From: a virus
Lineage: Duplodnaviria; Caudoviricetes
Virus record (IMG/VR): IMGVR_UViG_3300037067_011302
Location: 120,220 to 184,219 of that record
Strand: one strand, 5' to 3'
Length of the DNA: 64,000 bases
The notes beneath the pieces were generated by a model that saw nothing but the letters and a program-made list of their open reading frames with translations, searched no databases and was not told where the DNA came from. Of this stretch, positions 12,452 to 62,997 are shown piece after piece; position 1 is the stretch's first letter; every line of letters begins with the position of its first letter. Made by a program: the position numbers and the translations under genes.

Positions 12452-13603
12452 ATGTTTCGCGCGGTCAAAACCAAGTTGGATAATCTTTTGGAATCTGAGA
12501 TTCAGTCTCTTAGAGAAACCCAGCGTATTGCAACGAACGTGTACAATGACTATGTCAACTACGCGTTTGAGCACCAAAAGTGCTCAAGGTTCGACCTACA
12601 GAAGGCGTTGTACTATGTTGAACGGGAGAAGTTTCCTGAATTTCATTCTTCACTCGTTCAATCGATCATCGTTGAAGTAATGAGTGCACTCAAGGCGGTC
12701 AAGTACAAGTTTCGCCCACACCGGAGTGAGAACGCTTCTCTCACGTATGACGTGAGGATGTTCAAATTACGAGGTGATCAACTTTCGCTCAGCACGACAG
12801 GAAAGCGCTTCAGGACGATCATTCAGTTTCCTGACTGGTGTAAAGACATCATTAAGGAAGGAAAATCAAAGACAATTCAACTTATTTGGGACAGGAAAAA
12901 TCAGCGGTTTGATGCTCGGATCGTGTTCAAACTTCCCGATGTTGAGAAGAAGGACGAAGGTAAGGTCATCGGAATTGACCAAGGATTGGTCAATTTGGCA
13001 GTCACTTCAGAAGGTGAATTTTTTGGTGCGAAGAAAACAAGGAGGAATCAAAGGAAGTTTTTATTTTTGAGGAGAAAGCTCTCGGCAAAAGGCACTCGTT
13101 CCGCAAAGAGATTGTTGAAAAATCTCAGTGGAAAAGAGAAGCGGTTTAACCGAGACGTAAATCACTGCATTGCAAAGAAGCTTGCGTCACGTAGTGACGT
13201 AAAGGCATACGTCATTGAGGATCTCAAGGGAATCAGGAACCAAAAATGTGGGAAAAAGCTTAACAAACTTCTTTCCTCATGGACGTTCTGTCAACTTGAA
13301 TCTTTCCTCACGTACAAGTGCCTTGCGAATGGAATCTCCGTTCAAAAAGTGAGTCCAGCGTACACCTCACAGAAGTGTTCAAATTGTGGACGGATCCATA
13401 AAGAGAATCGTAATCAAGGACGTTACGTTTGTGATAAGTGTGGGTTCAAAATTCATGCAGATGTAAACGCAGCGATCAACATACGAGATAAGTGGGTCTC
13501 AAAATCATCCTATGGTTTAGCCCATAGGCAGGGTACATTCGATTGCCCGAACGGGAATAACAGAAATGTCAAGTCCCAAGATCATCACATAGGTAATGGT
13601 TAA
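12452..13603 (+). CDS. tnpB: RNA-guided endonuclease TnpB (family 1 here)
   Basis: RuvC IGIDQG / VIEDL / HADVNAA, YTSQKCSNCG..CDKCG zinc ribbon. D-E-D triad intact. Confidence 0.92.
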   Translation: MFRAVKTKLDNLLESEIQSLRETQRIATNVYNDYVNYAFEHQKCSRFDLQKALYYVEREKFPEFHSSLVQSIIVEVMSALKAVKYKFRPHRSENASLTYDVRMFKLRGDQLSLSTTGKRFRTIIQFPDWCKDIIKEGKSKTIQLIWDRKNQRFDARIVFKLPDVEKKDEGKVIGIDQGLVNLAVTSEGEFFGAKKTRRNQRKFLFLRRKLSAKGTRSAKRLLKNLSGKEKRFNRDVNHCIAKKLASRSDVKAYVIEDLKGIRNQKCGKKLNKLLSSWTFCQLESFLTYKCLANGISVQKVSPAYTSQKCSNCGRIHKENRNQGRYVCDKCGFKIHADVNAAINIRDKWVSKSSYGLAHRQGTFDCPNGNNRNVKSQDHHIGNG

Positions 13604-13625
13604 GTCGAAATGACGTACGATTATG
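13457..13625 (+). ncRNA. omegaRNA (reRNA) of TnpB family 1; scaffold ends ...TTAAGTCGA at 13608, guide starts AATGACGTACGATTATG
   Basis: Overlaps the tnpB 3' end. Boundary is set by loss of similarity to the orphan copy at 62660-62814. Confidence 0.65.
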
Positions 13626-28219: not shown

Positions 28220-29419
28220 GTGTCTCATTTATCACACAAAATCAGGCTATATCCGAACAAACAGGTCTTGAACTATTTCGTTCAAGCCGTGGGTACGGCG
28301 CGATTTTCCTGGAATTGGGCACTTGCTAAGTGGCAGGAACTCTATAAAAAAGGCGTCAAGGATCTTTCAGGATACACACTCGATAAGGAATTCAATAGGA
28401 TCAAAAAGGAAGAATTTCCTTGGACGAAAGAAATAGCTGCGCATATTACTGATGTGTCGATTCAAAATCTTGGAAATGCGTTCAAGAGGTTCTTTAATAA
28501 GAAATCGGGATATCCAAAATTCAAGAAGAGAGGTGTTTCAAAGGAATCATTCTATGTTAGGTTGAACAATTCGAAAGTCGTAGGTAAGTTTCTAAGGATT
28601 CCACGTCTCAAGTCATCAATTCGAATGGCTGAAGAAGTGAGGTTTCCTGGAAAGATCAAAAGTGCGGTGATCTCGAAGGGTTCCAACGGAAATTGGTACG
28701 CATCCTTTGGGATCGAGTTGGATGAGTCATACGTCTATCCACACAAGTGTGAGAGCCAAGCACGAGTTGGTGTGGACCTCGGAATCAAGACGCTCGCCGT
28801 CTGTTCCAACGGAACAAGGTTTGAGAACCCGAAGTGTTACAGGACACGTGAGAGGAAGATCAGGTCGTTGAGCCAATCTCTCTGCCGAAAGAAGAGAGGT
28901 TCTTCGAACCGGATGAAGGCACGGATTAAGTTAGCATGTGCTCACGTGAGGATCAGGCGGATTAGATTGGACGCAATTCATAAGATGACCTCTATGATCG
29001 TGAAAAGGTTCAAAGTGATCTGCATCGAGGATCTCAACGTTAAAGGCATGCTCAAGAACCACTGTCTTGCGAAGTCAATTTCTGACGCATCATTTTCTGA
29101 GATTCGGCGTCAATTGGTGTACAAGTCGAAGTTGAGTGGGTCAAAGTTGATCATCGTGAATAGATTTTTCCCATCGAGCAAGTTGTGTTCCGATTGCGGA
29201 CACAAGATGGAAGAACTTGATCTCTCGATCCGTGAATGGGTGTGTCCTGAATGTGGTGTTGTTCACGATCGTGACCTGAACGCTGCACAAAATTTGGAAA
29301 AGTGGGTCGCCCCGGGACATGAGGAGACCAAAAACGCCCGTGGAGATGGTGTTAGACGAGCGAGGGTTCGCAAGAACCCACGTGAGCAGCTGTCTGTGAA
29401 GCAGGAAGTCACATTGTGA
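28220..29419 (+). CDS. tnpB: RNA-guided endonuclease TnpB (IS605 OrfB type, family 2 here)
   Basis: HKIRLYPN HTH, VGVDLGIK, CIEDLN, FFPSSKLCSDCG..CPECG..HDRDLNAA. Confidence 0.95.
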   Translation: MSHLSHKIRLYPNKQVLNYFVQAVGTARFSWNWALAKWQELYKKGVKDLSGYTLDKEFNRIKKEEFPWTKEIAAHITDVSIQNLGNAFKRFFNKKSGYPKFKKRGVSKESFYVRLNNSKVVGKFLRIPRLKSSIRMAEEVRFPGKIKSAVISKGSNGNWYASFGIELDESYVYPHKCESQARVGVDLGIKTLAVCSNGTRFENPKCYRTRERKIRSLSQSLCRKKRGSSNRMKARIKLACAHVRIRRIRLDAIHKMTSMIVKRFKVICIEDLNVKGMLKNHCLAKSISDASFSEIRRQLVYKSKLSGSKLIIVNRFFPSSKLCSDCGHKMEELDLSIREWVCPECGVVHDRDLNAAQNLEKWVAPGHEETKNARGDGVRRARVRKNPREQLSVKQEVTL

Positions 29420-29445
29420 CATATCAGAGGATCAGATGACGACGA
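29305..29445 (+). ncRNA. omegaRNA of TnpB family 2; scaffold ends near TCA 29426, guide (G)AGGATCAGATGACGACG
   Basis: Hairpins GGGTTC-GCAA-GAACCC and GTCAC-ATT-GTGAC. Conserved with the copies at 34155 and 59152. Confidence 0.7.
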
Positions 29446-33071: not shown

Positions 33072-34268
33072 GTGCCTCACCTGACCCATAAAATCAGATT
33101 GTATCCAAACAAACAGGCCTTGAGTTACTTCGCTCAAGCAGCGGGTACGGCTCGATTTTCTTGGAACTGGGCACTCGCCAAGTGGCAGGAACTTTATAAA
33201 CAGGGCATCAAGGGTCTCTCAGGGTACACACTTGACAAGGAATTCAATAGGATCAAGAAGGATGAATTTCCTTGGACGAGTGAAATGTCTTCACAAGTCA
33301 CTCAGGTATCGATCCAAAATCTTGGAAAGGCGTTCAAGGGATTTTTCAATGGAAAAGGGTATCCAAAGTTCAAGAAGAGAGGTGCATCGAAAGAATCGTT
33401 TTATGTTGGACTGAATAATTCAAAAGTTGTAGGTAAATTCTTAAGGATCCCACGACTCAAGTCGTCAATTCTGATGGCGGAAGAAGTGAGGTTTTCTGGG
33501 AAAATTAAAAATGCAGTGATCTCGAAGGGTTCTGACGGAAACTGGTACGCTTCGTTCGGGATCGAGCTGGACGAAAGTTACGTCTATCCACATAAGTGTG
33601 AGAGCCAAGCACGAGTCGGTGTGGACCTTGGAATCAAGACGTTAGCAGTCTGTTCCGATGGTACGAGATTCGAGAACCCAAAGAGTTACAGGACACGTGA
33701 GAGGAAGATCAAGTCGTTGAGCCAATCTCTTTGTAGAAAGAAAAGAGGTTCTTCGAATCGGATGAAGGCACGGATCAAGTTAGCATGTGCTCATGCAAGA
33801 ATCAGGCGGATCAGGTTGGACGCGATTCACAAGATGACAACGTCAATCGTGAAGAGGTTCAGAGTGATCTGCATCGAAGATCTCAACGTGAAAGGCATGT
33901 TAAAGAACCACTGCCTTGCGAAGTCAGTTTCAGATGCATCATTCTCTGAGATTCGACGTCAGTTGGCGTACAAATCGAAACTGAGTGGGTCAGAGTTGAA
34001 CATTGTGAATAGGTTCTTCCCATCGAGCAAATTGTGTTCAGATTGTGGGCACAAGATGGAAGAACTTGATCTTTCGATTCGTGAGTGGGATTGTCCTGAG
34101 TGTGGCGCGGTCCATGACAGGGACCTAAACGCCGCACAAAATTTAGAAAAGTGGGTCGCCTTGGGGCACAGGGAGACCGAAAACGCCTGTGGAGATGGTA
34201 CAAGACGTGTAAAGGTTCGCAAGAACCCATCAACGCAACTATTTACGAAGCAGGAAGTCACACTGTGA
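33072..34268 (+). CDS. tnpB: RNA-guided endonuclease TnpB (family 2, close paralog of 28220..29419)
   Basis: Same motifs with an intact D-E-D triad. TAGGAT-N6-GTG leaderless promoter. Confidence 0.95.
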   Translation: MPHLTHKIRLYPNKQALSYFAQAAGTARFSWNWALAKWQELYKQGIKGLSGYTLDKEFNRIKKDEFPWTSEMSSQVTQVSIQNLGKAFKGFFNGKGYPKFKKRGASKESFYVGLNNSKVVGKFLRIPRLKSSILMAEEVRFSGKIKNAVISKGSDGNWYASFGIELDESYVYPHKCESQARVGVDLGIKTLAVCSDGTRFENPKSYRTRERKIKSLSQSLCRKKRGSSNRMKARIKLACAHARIRRIRLDAIHKMTTSIVKRFRVICIEDLNVKGMLKNHCLAKSVSDASFSEIRRQLAYKSKLSGSELNIVNRFFPSSKLCSDCGHKMEELDLSIREWDCPECGAVHDRDLNAAQNLEKWVALGHRETENACGDGTRRVKVRKNPSTQLFTKQEVTL

Positions 34269-34294
34269 TGTGTCAAGGATAGACGTACATGGCG
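34155..34294 (+). ncRNA. omegaRNA of TnpB family 2; scaffold ends near TCA 34275, guide (A)GGATAGACGTACATGG
   Basis: GGTTC-GCAA-GAACC and GTCAC-ACT-GTGAT hairpins. Confidence 0.7.
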
Positions 34295-58368: not shown

Positions 58369-58719
58369 ATGAAGAAGAACGCAAAACCCACGAACATCAG
58401 GCTCATTGACCTCGTCAGGCGACGCAAGTCAACGCTCGCACAGACGTTCAGCGACCTCGGTATCACAACGTACGAGGGATGCCTGAACATGTGCGCGTCG
58501 ATGGGCGTCGAGCCGCCCGATGAGCGGGACTTTGACAGGGCGCTCGGAAGGAACCGTCAGCCCGTCAACGACCCACAAGAAGGCGTCATCGTCGTTGATA
58601 CCCCCGTGATTGTCTCGGAGTCGACCGGCAACCCAATTCCTCAGGAACCGTTCGAAGACGTGCCGGCGCAGTTGACCACGACCAAGCGATATAAGCGACG
58701 TCCGGCGTCGGTCGACTAG
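58369..58719 (+). CDS. Hypothetical protein
   Basis: ORF in operon. Confidence 0.6.
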   Translation: MKKNAKPTNIRLIDLVRRRKSTLAQTFSDLGITTYEGCLNMCASMGVEPPDERDFDRALGRNRQPVNDPQEGVIVVDTPVIVSESTGNPIPQEPFEDVPAQLTTTKRYKRRPASVD

Positions 58720-58961
58720 ACTCTACGTCCATCACACCAGTGAGATCCACAGGATCCGCAGATCTTGTGGCCTGGTGGTTCAACGTAGAAGGCACGTTCG
58801 ACCAACCACAGCTTCCCACCACAGGTGCACGGACCGTCGTGTTCGATCCTTGCACCGTCATCAACCTGCAGTGCACAACGAAGTCGTAGGACCTCGTAGT
58901 AGCTCGTCGCGGGCTTACCGTCGTGGATGCCGATCCTGACCGTGTTGTTTCCTTTGTCCAT
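58716..58961 (-). CDS. Small zinc-ribbon protein
   Basis: CTCGG..ICGSCG. GTGCAC-N18-TAGGAT-N6-ATG promoter. Confidence 0.6.
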   Translation of the reverse strand: MDKGNNTVRIGIHDGKPATSYYEVLRLRCALQVDDGARIEHDGPCTCGGKLWLVERAFYVEPPGHKICGSCGSHWCDGRRV

Positions 58962-59134
58962 GGTTTGATCCTACCACGGACTGGGCGGCACGTGCACTGT
59001 GAACGCTCAAATGGCGGTGCACGTTCCACACGAAATTTCATCATCGTAGAACGATATTGTAGACACGGCGCCGTCTTCAAACATGATGACGTAGTCGCAC
59101 GTTTGCACTGTGTGCCTTGCCCCCAACATTACTA

Positions 59135-59273
59135 CATTCGTGTCGTACTTCTGACATGTCACTTACGTAACTTCCTGCTTCATCGACAATTGCTCGCGTG
59201 GGTTCTTGCGAACCCTCGCTCGTCTTACACCATCTCCACAGGCGTTTTCGGTCTCCCTGTGCCCCAAGGCGAC
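59135..59273 (-). ncRNA. Orphan omegaRNA of TnpB family 2; guide (G)AAGTACGACACGAATG
   Basis: ~120 nt closely matching 29305-29426 and 34155-34275, diverging right after ...GTGACATGTCA. Confidence 0.75.
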
Positions 59274-59430
59274 ACAAATTTTTTTGTGGCATTTGTTCCT
59301 TGTTGTGAAGGATCGATCCTCAAGATTGCTTGGTTTTCGCACTCTCAGAGATCAATTAATTCACCCAGAACAACGCCGAAAGTTCATATTATTTTTCCTT
59401 TCCTGATTGTTTGATATTACAACACTCTCT
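59274..59430 (-). pseudogene. tnpB: Decayed, internally deleted tnpB fragment
   Basis: Translates to SVVIS.../TFGVVLGELIDL*ECENQAILRIDP, versus SAVIS...SFGIELDESYVYPHKCESQARVGVDL, then jumps to the C-terminal NA motif. Confidence 0.55.
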
Positions 59431-59445
59431 CGCGCTGTTCATCGT

Positions 59446-59508
59446 TGGAGCCGAATGAGGGAATTGAACCCACAACAGCCTGTTTACAGGACAGGTGCTC
59501 TACCGTTG
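59446..59508 (-). tRNA. 5'-truncated tRNA-Thr(UGU) remnant with CCA
   Basis: CAACGGTAGAGC (D arm), CCTGT-CCTGTAA-ACAGG (anticodon arm), GTGGG-TTCAATT-CCCTC (T arm), ATTCGGC-T-CCA. The 5' acceptor strand is absent. Confidence 0.7.
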
Positions 59509-59568
59509 GCCTCCATAGTGACACTCCAGTGAAAAATACTAGGTCACCGACGTTATATTTCGCCATGT

Positions 59569-59823
59569 TCAGTCCGTGCACAGCACCTTGATCGTGCTTC
59601 CGTTCAAAACACAATCACTTTCGTCATCGTAGACAACGTAAGTACTAATGGTGCCATCGTTCCTCAACACTTCATAGATCGCGTATACCGGGCATAGTCG
59701 GCGACGCATCAAGATCATTGCCGTGATAAATCTTTGTTCTGTCCGACACCAGATCGAGTGTTCGATCGATAGCAACGTCCCAGCGGGAAGTTCAAGTCGG
59801 TTCACCGGTGTTCTTTCGACCAC
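59569..59823 (-). CDS. Small SH3/KOW-like paralog
   Basis: LPAGTLLSI...YEVLRNDGTI. Confidence 0.6.
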   Translation of the reverse strand: MVERTPVNRLELPAGTLLSIEHSIWCRTEQRFITAMILMRRRLCPVYAIYEVLRNDGTISTYVVYDDESDCVLNGSTIKVLCTD

Positions 59824-60239
59824 GACTTACGCGGACCGGGAAATCGATCTTTGAAGTCATAGCTGTGAAGCCACTTGTTGAACGACGATCTCATTTTTTT
59901 TGGCGTCACGTCGGTGTCCATCCAATACCCGTTCAATCGATCGTCGTAGATCCTGACGATCTGTCCGTCCGGCATCATGACGTGGAAGTGATCGAGGTTG
60001 CGGACGTCGTGGGGAAATCGAACGATCGCAACGATCGTAACAAGCGTCACGCAATCGTCCTCGACTGCGTTCCAAGAGAACACGCAGTGACTACCGAGGT
60101 GCGCTAAGTGCTTGGTGCTGCAATTGTCTGGCGCGGCGCCCAGCGCCACGAATGAATCATTGACGTTGTATTCGTCGCCGCAAATAAGCGCGCGAGAACG
60201 CACAAGAATTTGGTCACCTACCTTCACCATCAAGTCCAT
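59802..60239 (-). CDS. Paralog family A protein
   Basis: VKVGDQILVRS...IVAIVRFP..NLDHFHVMMPDGQIV..DD..NGYW. Confidence 0.7.
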   Translation of the reverse strand: MDLMVKVGDQILVRSRALICGDEYNVNDSFVALGAAPDNCSTKHLAHLGSHCVFSWNAVEDDCVTLVTIVAIVRFPHDVRNLDHFHVMMPDGQIVRIYDDRLNGYWMDTDVTPKKMRSSFNKWLHSYDFKDRFPGPRKSWSKEHR

Positions 60240-60263
60240 CCTCTCACCGAGTCGGTCGCTCGT

Positions 60264-60695
60264 TCACTCACGTCCATCATAGAACGTCCTTTGACCTGAC
60301 CATCCTTGGACTGTGGCGGCGGCACGTGGGTCACTCGGTGCACTCATCATCGATGTCGCCCTCTCGCTCACCGTGAACGACGTACATACGTACCACAGTT
60401 CGCCGTTCTCCAACAGGACGATCGTCGTGGGAATGGCATCGTGATATTGCTCGAGCTCCTTGTTGAAGTTCACCAGTGCTTTCGACCTCGTCAACAATTT
60501 GCCGACGATCGTCACGAACAATTCACGTGGAATGCCCCTGACACAGTGCGTCGTATTGACGTACTCAACGAGCGCTTCACTTGAGTCGTCGGTGAGGACG
60601 GTCGTCTTTCCGACGGGACGCCAGAGGATTGAGTTCCAAATGATCACGACGCCACCGATCGGCAGCAGATCGTTCAATCGCAGAGCGCTACACAT
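60264..60695 (-). CDS. Paralog family B protein
   Basis: LNDLLPIG..LWRP..VGKLLTR..IPTTIVLLENGELWYV. Likely start MCSALR. Confidence 0.65.
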   Translation of the reverse strand: MCSALRLNDLLPIGGVVIIWNSILWRPVGKTTVLTDDSSEALVEYVNTTHCVRGIPRELFVTIVGKLLTRSKALVNFNKELEQYHDAIPTTIVLLENGELWYVCTSFTVSERATSMMSAPSDPRAAATVQGWSGQRTFYDGRE

Positions 60696-62605: not shown

Positions 62606-62997
62606 CAGAATTCCTCAGCGATTGAATCATTGTGAACATTTCGAAGCCTTCCATCACCGTCGACTTAACCATCACTTGCGTGATGATCTTGGGACTCGGT
62701 GTTCTCACCGTTCCCATGCGGGTGATCGACTACACCCTGCCTGTGGGTTATTAACCCACGGGATGATTTTGAGACCCACCTGTCTCGAATGTTCAATGCC
62801 GCGTTTACGTCGGCAATGTACACCACGACCACGTACGTCGTGCAGTACACGCTGATCCGTGGAACAGACAACACGACGGCTATGCCACGAGCGTGCCATC
62901 GTATGCTGCTTGTTCCAACGATCACGCCGTACGCATCATCGATGAGAATCATGTCACCCGCACGACAATCACCTGTCGACAGGACTTGTTGCCTCAC
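62605..62997 (-). pseudogene. Small SH3-like paralog interrupted by a 150-bp omegaRNA insert
   Basis: ...YVVVVYIAD | insert | (D)GDGRLRNVHNDSIAEEF*. The final TGA overlaps the next ATG. Confidence 0.7.
62640..62814 (-). ncRNA. Orphan omegaRNA of TnpB family 1; guide CGGTGATGGAAGGCTTCG
   Basis: Homologous to 13457-13608 (GTGGGTCTCAAAATCATCC...AGTCCCAAGATCATCAC...ATGGTTAAGTCGA) with covarying hairpins. Confidence 0.75.

Follow-up and report, generated by a model that had tools for sequence, protein, structure and literature searches.

The window analysed here is the final 64 kb of a 184,219-bp virus record (IMG/VR record IMGVR_UViG_3300037067_011302; Duplodnaviria, Caudoviricetes) from a large phage that encodes its own sigma factor; CheckV puts the completeness of the record at ~54%. 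Near the end of the window, a small minus-strand gene belonging to an array of paralogs is interrupted by an insert of ~350 bp, which holds a fragment of a tRNA-Thr gene and the omegaRNA scaffold of a TnpB element. On balance, and by a modest degree of confidence, we read this insert as a patchwork of mobile DNA made of a PATE-like orphan omegaRNA module and passenger scraps, with no designed RNA-processing cassette.

Three parts would make up the patchwork (Table 1). The first is probably what is left of a tRNA-Thr(UGU) gene, a dead piece of its 3′ part; the second is a stretch of ~26 nt that derives from a homing-endonuclease-like DUF7487 gene (3′ end) and closes in TTGTA; and the third is a ~267-bp protein-less, PATE-like derivative of an ISDra2-type TnpB element, whose last ~125 nt form an intact omegaRNA scaffold. 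The second and third parts may have been copied together from a locus resembling a second copy found in the record, where the mini-element sits canonically after TTGTG. The tRNA piece would be a former element flank, dating from a TnpB element that hit a tRNA-Thr gene of the phage lineage. We infer that the whole block then joined one member of a redundant paralog array non-transpositionally via microhomology (CAACG on the left, CAG on the right), killing the gene; since microhomology is seen at the junctions and foreign flank was carried along, break repair or template switching seems a better candidate than TnpA transposition. Read-through of the array could yield an omegaRNA with the guide AAGTACGACACGAATG, which TnpB1 or TnpB2 might bind and 5′-trim in trans. 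The good state of the scaffold would follow from the youth of the module and from sequence exchange with full-length copies by gene conversion.

The insert splits one paralog gene

Joined to each other, the two coding halves align across the junction to the adjacent paralog at 59569-59823(-) (SLW.RPTQKYDT versus SIWCRTEQRFIT, phmmer E 5e-5). This bears out a preliminary description of the region, which had placed the halves LWRPT and QKYDT of one paralog on either side of a ~350-bp insert. Judged by the alignment, both halves are one gene and the insert is genuine; misassembly is argued against because the flanks reconstitute a single gene. The open reading frame (ORF) of the N-terminal half continues through the tRNA piece to a TAA within TTGTAA. 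At the left junction, CAACG (59508-59504) is common to the gene and to the first 5 nt of the tRNA piece, and at the right junction the last 3 nt of the element, CAG, double as a Gln codon of the C-terminal half. A sequence shared by the N-terminal half and the left flank of tnpB1, CTATGGAG, is encoded by the gene (the conserved LW of the paralogs) and was set aside as a probable chance likeness. In a search of 5.8 billion proteins for relatives of the split gene, including an allele free of the insert, the sole match was the protein itself, and no contig directly joining the gene halves is listed in the two metagenome runs described below.

Another small gene of the same paralog array harbours a second orphan scaffold (window 62660-62815(-)), located between GCCGACG and GTCGACG. 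It is 75% identical to the 3′ end of a divergent tnpB (13456-13608), is protein-less, lacks a left end and terminates at the right end of its own element.

A second copy of the unit and the ends of the mini-element

BLAST against the whole record revealed a second copy of a ~295-bp unit at G000:C1:30997-31286 (86% identical over 295 nt), flanked by a 325-aa DUF7487 gene and a gp32-like gene. It aligns to window positions 59444-59150, the homology beginning right after the CCA of the tRNA piece; the piece itself is absent from the second copy and unique to the one at 59 kb. The same unit has no match among GenBank phages. Both this copy and the ~26-nt DUF7487 scrap (59443-59418) had escaped the preliminary description.

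In the second copy, the first ~26 nt are the in-frame end of the DUF7487 gene (..LDELRESVV), closing in TTGTG, and the scrap at 59 kb ends in the similar TTGTA (59422-59418), which resembles a transposon-adjacent motif (TAM). DUF7487 homologues in a library of 1.8 billion proteins have C-terminal tails of comparable length and type; an origin of the ~26-nt codons in the DUF7487 gene itself is moderately, not decisively, favoured. The sister mini-element (G000:C1:30998-31258; L002:1499-1759, minus strand) directly follows TTGTG at the end of the DUF7487 gene and looks like a clean canonical insertion. It supplies the last ~10 codons and the stop of the gene; with the mini-element taken out, the frame would run on to ...VVRKTVRGKRR*, just 5′ of the ribosome-binding site of the gp32-like gene.

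TTGTA closes the left flanks of tnpB2 and of a third copy, tnpB3, and TTGCT closes that of tnpB1, each directly before shared element sequence, and the left ends of the minis are preceded by TTGTA (59-kb copy) and TTGTG (sister copy). This indirect evidence places the left end of the mini-element at about 59417 and suggests that 59443-59418 is a DUF7487-type scrap carried along. The right end is agreed upon by five copies with different downstream DNA. Mini copies with the same ends occur at unrelated sites, namely at the second copy in the record and, with flanks of their own, in metagenomes. The 59-kb copy was not inserted directly 3′ of a target TAM: its TTGTA came with 26 nt of foreign flank and the tRNA scrap, and the host gene gives ...CCAACG at the left junction.

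The interior of the mini-element had been described as a heavily decayed tnpB piece. This holds for ~32 nt only (59308-59277), which retain HDRDLNAAQN codons of the RuvC-III region with deletions of 1 nt and 7 nt; tblastn on the mini likewise found only tnpB residues 361-397. For the ~110-140 nt upstream of 59308 the description does not stand, as local alignment to tnpB1 and tnpB2 scores no higher than with shuffled controls, and this upstream part has no relative in 136 related loci or among GenBank phages. At the left end, likeness to full-length tnpB is confined to ~12 nt (CAAACAATCAGG versus CAAAAATCAGG, tnpB codons 6-9) plus the upstream TTGT(A/G); it is weak, with a non-significant local alignment, and weakly compatible with a derivative that arose by internal deletion.

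Both minis keep AGGAAAGGAAAA(A)TAATATG (59397-59371(-) and L002) followed by a 7-codon ORF, MNFRRCSG* or MNFWHCSG*. A 31-nt look-alike of the AGGAAAGGAAAA stretch is present in an unrelated metagenome contig (L137:2192-2222); the same contig gave the single metagenome match of a 21-nt mini-specific word, which we rejected as a 21-31-nt chance match. Another contig, L138, matched by the mini pseudo-ORF, is the 3′ end of one more full-length tnpB and displays the fixed right-end boundary, not the tRNA junction.

The omegaRNA scaffold is conserved in fold and mosaic in sequence

The scaffold (59276-59150, ~125 nt) shares 84% identity with the terminal parts of tnpB1 (3′ end, to 29428) and tnpB2 (3′ end, to 34261) and contains the hairpins GGGTTC-GCAA-GAACCC and GTTAC-GTAA-GTGAC, in line with the good preservation reported for it earlier. 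We built a covariance model, R1, from five scaffold copies. The scaffold at 59 kb scores 149.1 bits with this model, equal to intact copies, and R1 also finds a homologous RNA at the tnpB 3′ end in seven more distant loci (L009, L011, L012, L014, L058, L059 and L015). Across 12 sequences, in an alignment that was fitted to R1, 91.4% of cells are paired and 30/35 pairs have changed on both sides; none of 500 shuffles (0/500) reaches the observed level, and sliding the partners by 1-3 columns leaves 35-44% paired. With the model as yardstick, the conserved fold shows constraint on the scaffold family, not on the copy at 59 kb.

At gathering thresholds, Rfam gives no match across the window. Below them, RAGATH-18 matches the scaffold core with 24.3 bits (E 0.05; the gathering score of 44.9 is not reached) and Transposase-2 matches the scaffold weakly. 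Both motifs are known from TnpB guide RNAs (PMC11061315). In the minimum-free-energy fold of the minus strand, 9 nt of the guide region, CGACACGAA (59145-59137), pair with the 5′ edge of the scaffold, UUUGUGUCG (59281-59273); this pairing is absent in the sister copy and probably due to chance. Viral and metagenome contigs scanned for sequence patterns of the scaffold, of the tRNA piece and of a scaffold-to-tRNA junction returned nothing.

The contrast between a decayed protein part and a preserved RNA had been taken as a sign of selection on the RNA. Comparison of the two minis does not call for it: the scaffold is identical at 109/126 positions (86.5%), and the remainder has 143 matches, 18 mismatches and 7 gaps (85%). 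As suggested earlier from similarity of the 5′ part to the copy at 33072 and of the middle to the copy at 28220, the scaffold at 59 kb is mosaic: of the sites at which tnpB1 and tnpB2 differ, the first 8 are tnpB2-like and most of the others follow tnpB1 (Fisher p 0.004); the scaffold at 31 kb is tnpB1-like throughout. Because scaffold and non-scaffold parts have diverged equally and the mosaic points to sequence exchange, selection on the RNA of the 59-kb copy is not required; gene conversion with full-length copies can explain the preservation.

Resident TnpB proteins, guide and target

Two full-length copies in the window, tnpB1 and tnpB2, encode the complete Pfam domains OrfB_IS605, Cas12f1-like_TNB and HTH_OrfB_IS605. 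TnpB2 matches the ISDra2 TnpB structures with E 1.4e-67, and the alignment printed for the related chain 9yyg shows its RuvC motifs DLGIK, IEDLN and HDRD. A TnpB predicted to be catalytically competent is accordingly available in the window. The third gene, tnpB3 (C1:1-795, minus strand; L003), is interrupted by the start of the record, with its 3′ end, scaffold and flank outside; over residues 1-258 it shares 89% amino-acid identity with tnpB2. A fourth, divergent tnpB lies at 12452-13603. The 184-kb record, estimated to hold ~54% of a complete genome, gave no match to the Y1 transposase TnpA (PF01797), and neither a tyrosine integrase nor a serine recombinase turned up in it. Relatives of the phage sought via the sigma factor were limited to ~53%-identical contigs without the minus-strand paralogs, and a 1400-aa structural protein had no match among GenBank phages.

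The TAM of ISDra2 is TTGAT. Its likeness to the five left flanks described above suggests TTGTN for the elements of this phage; no TAM was derivable from the relatives L009-L012. In the reconstructed uninterrupted allele, the sequence directly before the target would read ...CCAACG(CAG) instead of a TTGTN-type motif, which makes homing doubtful, and the guide AAGTACGACACGAATG probably has no cleavable homing target. Besides its own flank, the guide has no match with <2 mismatches in the 184-kb record.

These data bear on the most serious alternative, that of a working orphan guide: the omegaRNA, transcribed with the array, would load TnpB1 or TnpB2 in trans and cleave the uninterrupted allele, or something similar, in co-infecting phages, so that the insert homes or a competitor is damaged, and it would form a small guide repertoire with the other orphan scaffold. 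We hold this to be possible and rather unlikely. Its attractions are a scaffold that scores like those of intact elements and keeps all helices, intact ISDra2-type TnpBs in the same window, and the number of modules, with two minis, a second-family orphan scaffold in the paralog array and more copies in metagenomes. The failure to find TnpA in the 184-kb record would fit a homing-only lifestyle, and trans action of PATE-encoded omegaRNAs has been proposed (PMC10055086). However, besides the unsuitable motif beside the presumed target and the lack of any other guide target in the 184-kb record, the non-canonical join with passenger DNA implies that the guide was not chosen by TAM adjacency, the scaffold is no more conserved than the rest of the mini, and the mosaic fits gene conversion. 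The patchwork reading, in which the module sits in a non-canonical position and is probably inert, seems to us the better account.

Metagenome contigs over the region

Contigs from two public metagenomes, a groundwater run and a landfill run (coded X1 and X2, the latter being the landfill), were aligned to the region. The groundwater sample is the probable origin of the record. The landfill sample contains the same phage, with flanks 100% identical. Depth over the scaffold and the 5′ part of the mini is 10-20x that of the flanks, which implies that more copies exist than the record shows. One landfill contig (X2 record 10) carries a full-length tnpB and then, after 1 nt, a mini from 59414; other metagenome variants skip 81 nt (59290-59372) or 139 nt (59273-59413). 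In both runs a minus-strand joint reads ...ATGTCAG + CT + CAACGGTAGAGC..., so that the right end of the scaffold abuts the tRNA segment known from the window, here longer by 2-4 tRNA letters.

Coverage also speaks to an assembly chimera, a contig mis-joined within the repeated scaffold, which we consider very unlikely. The Logan unitigs break within the scaffold, where no contig of its own depth is shown for 59182-59243, the scaffold is mosaic, and the first base of the record falls inside a tnpB copy. Yet zero-difference contigs cover 58500-59181, 59244-59382 and 59377-60500, the uncovered repeat of only ~62 nt is below read length, and two flanks that rebuild one gene are not what a mis-join is expected to give.

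The tRNA-Thr piece

The tRNA piece spans from the D-loop (CAACGGTAGAGC) to ATTCGGC-T-CCA at 59446, as the preliminary description had it: a 5′-truncated tRNA-Thr ending in CCA. It matches positions 9-63 of 71 of the Rfam tRNA model with 24.4 bits (E 0.014; gathering score 29, not reached) and shares 84.6% identity with the tRNA-Thr of Myxococcus phage Mx1 across 52 nt; in 121 phage records it matches genes annotated as tRNA-Thr. Both the D-stem and the 5′ acceptor strand are missing, the anticodon loop CCUGUAA has C33 instead of U33, and the T-stem GUGGG/CCCUC contains one U.U (T.T) mismatch; the piece thus lacks both a full cloverleaf with acceptor stem and the canonical U33 with a paired T-stem. 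No complement to ATTCGGC is present upstream, the fold of the region is no stabler than that of shuffled sequence (z +0.46), and ARAGORN does not call the piece. A donor tRNA-Thr gene was not found either, ARAGORN reporting 0 tRNA genes in the window and in the whole 184-kb record.

On the minus strand, UGGAG-CC of the gene (LWRP codons; 59515-59508) can pair with GGCUCCA of the tRNA (59452-59446), a 7-bp pseudo-acceptor stem in the minimum-free-energy fold; the CCA is taken up by this pairing, which is displaced by 4 nt relative to the T-arm. Elsewhere, at G000:C1:13975-14106 on the minus strand (L139:1476-1607), there is a weak match to YrlA, a Y RNA-like family (23.9 bits, E 0.086), whose T-arm TGTGGGTTCAATTCCCTC is identical at 18/18 positions to that of the tRNA piece (59474-59457), including the T.T mismatch. 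This locus and the tRNA-Thr piece may share an origin within the phage lineage.

Since metagenome contigs show the same tRNA segment against the right end of the scaffold, the piece is most likely a passenger that once flanked another TnpB element. Endonuclease genes among phage tRNA genes, as in Mx1, would explain why a tRNA scrap lies beside a DUF7487 scrap. An integration scar, offered earlier as the alternative origin, comes close to this if taken broadly; as an attP-type scar, left when a temperate ancestor integrated in a host tRNA-Thr gene and retained its 3′ part, it is in our view highly improbable. Phage attachment sites often include the 3′ part of a tRNA gene, and the piece does extend to the CCA end. 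But no integrase or recombinase of either type was found in 184 kb, the piece is embedded in a small gene and fused to other scraps, phage tRNA-Thr genes are the sequences it matches best, and in metagenome contigs the segment abuts a TnpB scaffold.

The proposal that tRNA enzymes process the tRNA-like piece and so release the downstream guide RNA from a polycistronic transcript retains hardly any credit. It drew on the position of the piece upstream of the scaffold on the same strand and on its CCA end, to which the 7-bp pseudo-acceptor pairing could be added. However, the second copy carries the scaffold unlinked to any tRNA piece, the piece is defective in its acceptor strand, D-stem, position 33 and T-stem, and the pseudo-stem swallows the CCA at an offset from the T-arm with a stability equal to shuffled sequence. 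Some ~170 nt separate the tRNA 3′ end (59446) from the scaffold downstream, and this interval includes a remnant of a different gene. TnpB, moreover, is reported to generate the 5′ end of the omegaRNA by cutting its own mRNA (PMC10278001), which leaves no need for a helper signal. Equally close to negligible is an RNA intermediate, a chimeric complementary DNA of the mature tRNA-Thr 3′ part, stopped in the D-loop, and a scaffold-ending transcript, copied into a break beside a guide-matching site: the CCA-ended, D-loop-truncated tRNA piece and the right border of both orphan scaffolds at the scaffold/guide junction would suit it, but no reverse transcriptase is known here (no systematic search was made), a CCA end may be encoded in the gene itself, as in a contig of X2 with a bacterial tRNA-Thr that ends ...CGCCGGCTCCA, and the metagenome joint shows the tRNA segment as ordinary element flank.

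Table 1. Features of the insert, the split gene and the full-length elements as possible trans-acting partners (window coordinates).
Feature	Position	Strand	Evidence and remarks
N-terminal half, split paralog	59504..59566	-	ATG 59566 opens MAKYNVGDLVFFTGVSLWRPT; joined halves align to paralog
Degenerate 5′-truncated tRNA-Thr(UGU) pseudogene piece	59446..59511	-	Rfam tRNA; Mx1 alignment; 121 phage matches
DUF7487 scrap, 26 nt	59418..59443	-	homologous to 3′ end (DELRESVV codons) of the 325-aa DUF7487 gene; within the 86% match
Mini-element left end and interior, protein-less	59277..59417	-	left boundary near 59417-59414, backed by X2 record 10
OmegaRNA scaffold, five helices	59151..59280	-	R1 149.1 bits; RAGATH-18-like core 59242-59172; right end ...ATGTCAG at 59151
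Guide position of would-be omegaRNA, AAGTACGACACGAATG	59135..59150	-	directly 3′ of right end; start of C-terminal gene half
C-terminal half, split paralog	59007..59153	-	frame resumes QKYDTNVVML...CTAI*, ends 59007
tnpB1 and omegaRNA	28220..29427	+	gene 28220-29419; scaffold 29299-29427; R1 149.8 bits; possible trans partner
tnpB2 and omegaRNA	33072..34276	+	gene 33072-34268; scaffold 34148-34276; R1 136.1 bits; possible trans partner

Discussion

Several points weigh against the patchwork reading. The exact junctions and their microhomology had to be deduced, no uninterrupted allele having been found, and TTGTN as TAM rests likewise on deduction from five flanks and the resemblance to ISDra2. 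Three copies have a common 5′ boundary near 59441-59444, which is possibly the true element end. The metagenome evidence consists of short contigs, read in part only, and the unseen part of the genome may hold TnpA, a tRNA-Thr gene and further copies. Finally, orphan scaffolds from two TnpB families recur within the same paralog array. This gives a hint of a directed mechanism or of some use, and it is the main reason why we retain that possibility as a minority view.

PATE elements, protein-less and with omegaRNAs that depend on TnpB in trans, were described in bacteria (Meers et al. 2023, PMC10055086), and the module is a phage-borne member of this kind. Like them it has no protein gene, ends on the right with a full omegaRNA scaffold, occurs in several copies and needs TnpB in trans from the same genome. 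Unlike them it resides in a large phage in whose 184-kb record no TnpA was found, its left end barely resembles the full-length copies, and the 59-kb copy arrived as a block with tRNA and gene scraps, not canonically after a TAM. With the ISDra2 TnpB-omegaRNA system (PDB 8EXA, 8H1J, 8BF8) the window shares an omegaRNA that overlaps the tnpB 3′ end and a guide given by the DNA just past the right end. The differences are a nuclease gene reduced in the module to ~32 recognisable nt, a probable TAM of TTGTN versus TTGAT, and a left end that, in the full-length copies, precedes the start codon by only ~15 nt.

Resemblance to the RAGATH-18 right-end element RNA (reRNA) of IS607 TnpBs (ISFba1, PDB 8IAZ) is more distant. 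The core CCUGUGGAG...CGAUGAAGCAGGAA matches the ends of the model and TnpB2 matches 8IAZ with E 3e-44, but the scaffold reaches 24.3 versus 44.9 bits and has ~21 nt between motif and guide in place of the 64-nt 3′ flanking motif of the reRNA, a family whose TAM is AGGAG or GAGGG (PMC11061315). Moreover, the TnpB of the window is closer to ISDra2, and no serine recombinase accompanies it in the 184-kb record. Synthetic polycistronic arrays of tRNAs and guide RNAs (tRNA-gRNA arrays) also place tRNA-derived sequence upstream of a guide scaffold on one strand; there, however, whole tRNAs abut the gRNA, whereas here a defective 3′ fragment lies ~170 nt away and is absent from the sister copy. As to tRNA clusters of the Mx1 type, the piece is closest to phage tRNA-Thr(UGU), and the Mx1 cluster holds genes for HNH and Hef-like endonucleases; in contrast, the 184-kb record has no intact tRNA gene and the fragment is found inside an unrelated small gene. 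Had this locus been a natural tRNA-gRNA unit, a synthetic design in wide use would have gained a remarkable precedent, but the evidence says that it is no such unit.

A bolder idea, to which we give little weight, is that scaffold-only omegaRNA modules spread without TnpA, through break repair or template switching for which the right end serves as anchor. The two-family orphan scaffolds in one array, the tandem tnpB-mini contigs and the scaffold-tRNA-Thr joint are possible traces of such spread. If it were true, each TnpA-free landing would place a scaffold beside new DNA and so provide a new guide for resident TnpBs, a primitive, array-less form of guide diversification for contests between related phages.

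Taken as a whole, the insert is a fairly ordinary mobile-element scar, which advises caution against reading orphan guides as functional. It documents a phage with several ISDra2-type TnpBs and protein-less omegaRNA modules, one of which appears to have moved with passenger scraps and not by canonical transposition, in a 184-kb record that yielded no transposase. It also adds a small data point on the detachment of an omegaRNA module from its nuclease, a step assumed in the evolution from TnpB to CRISPR-Cas12.

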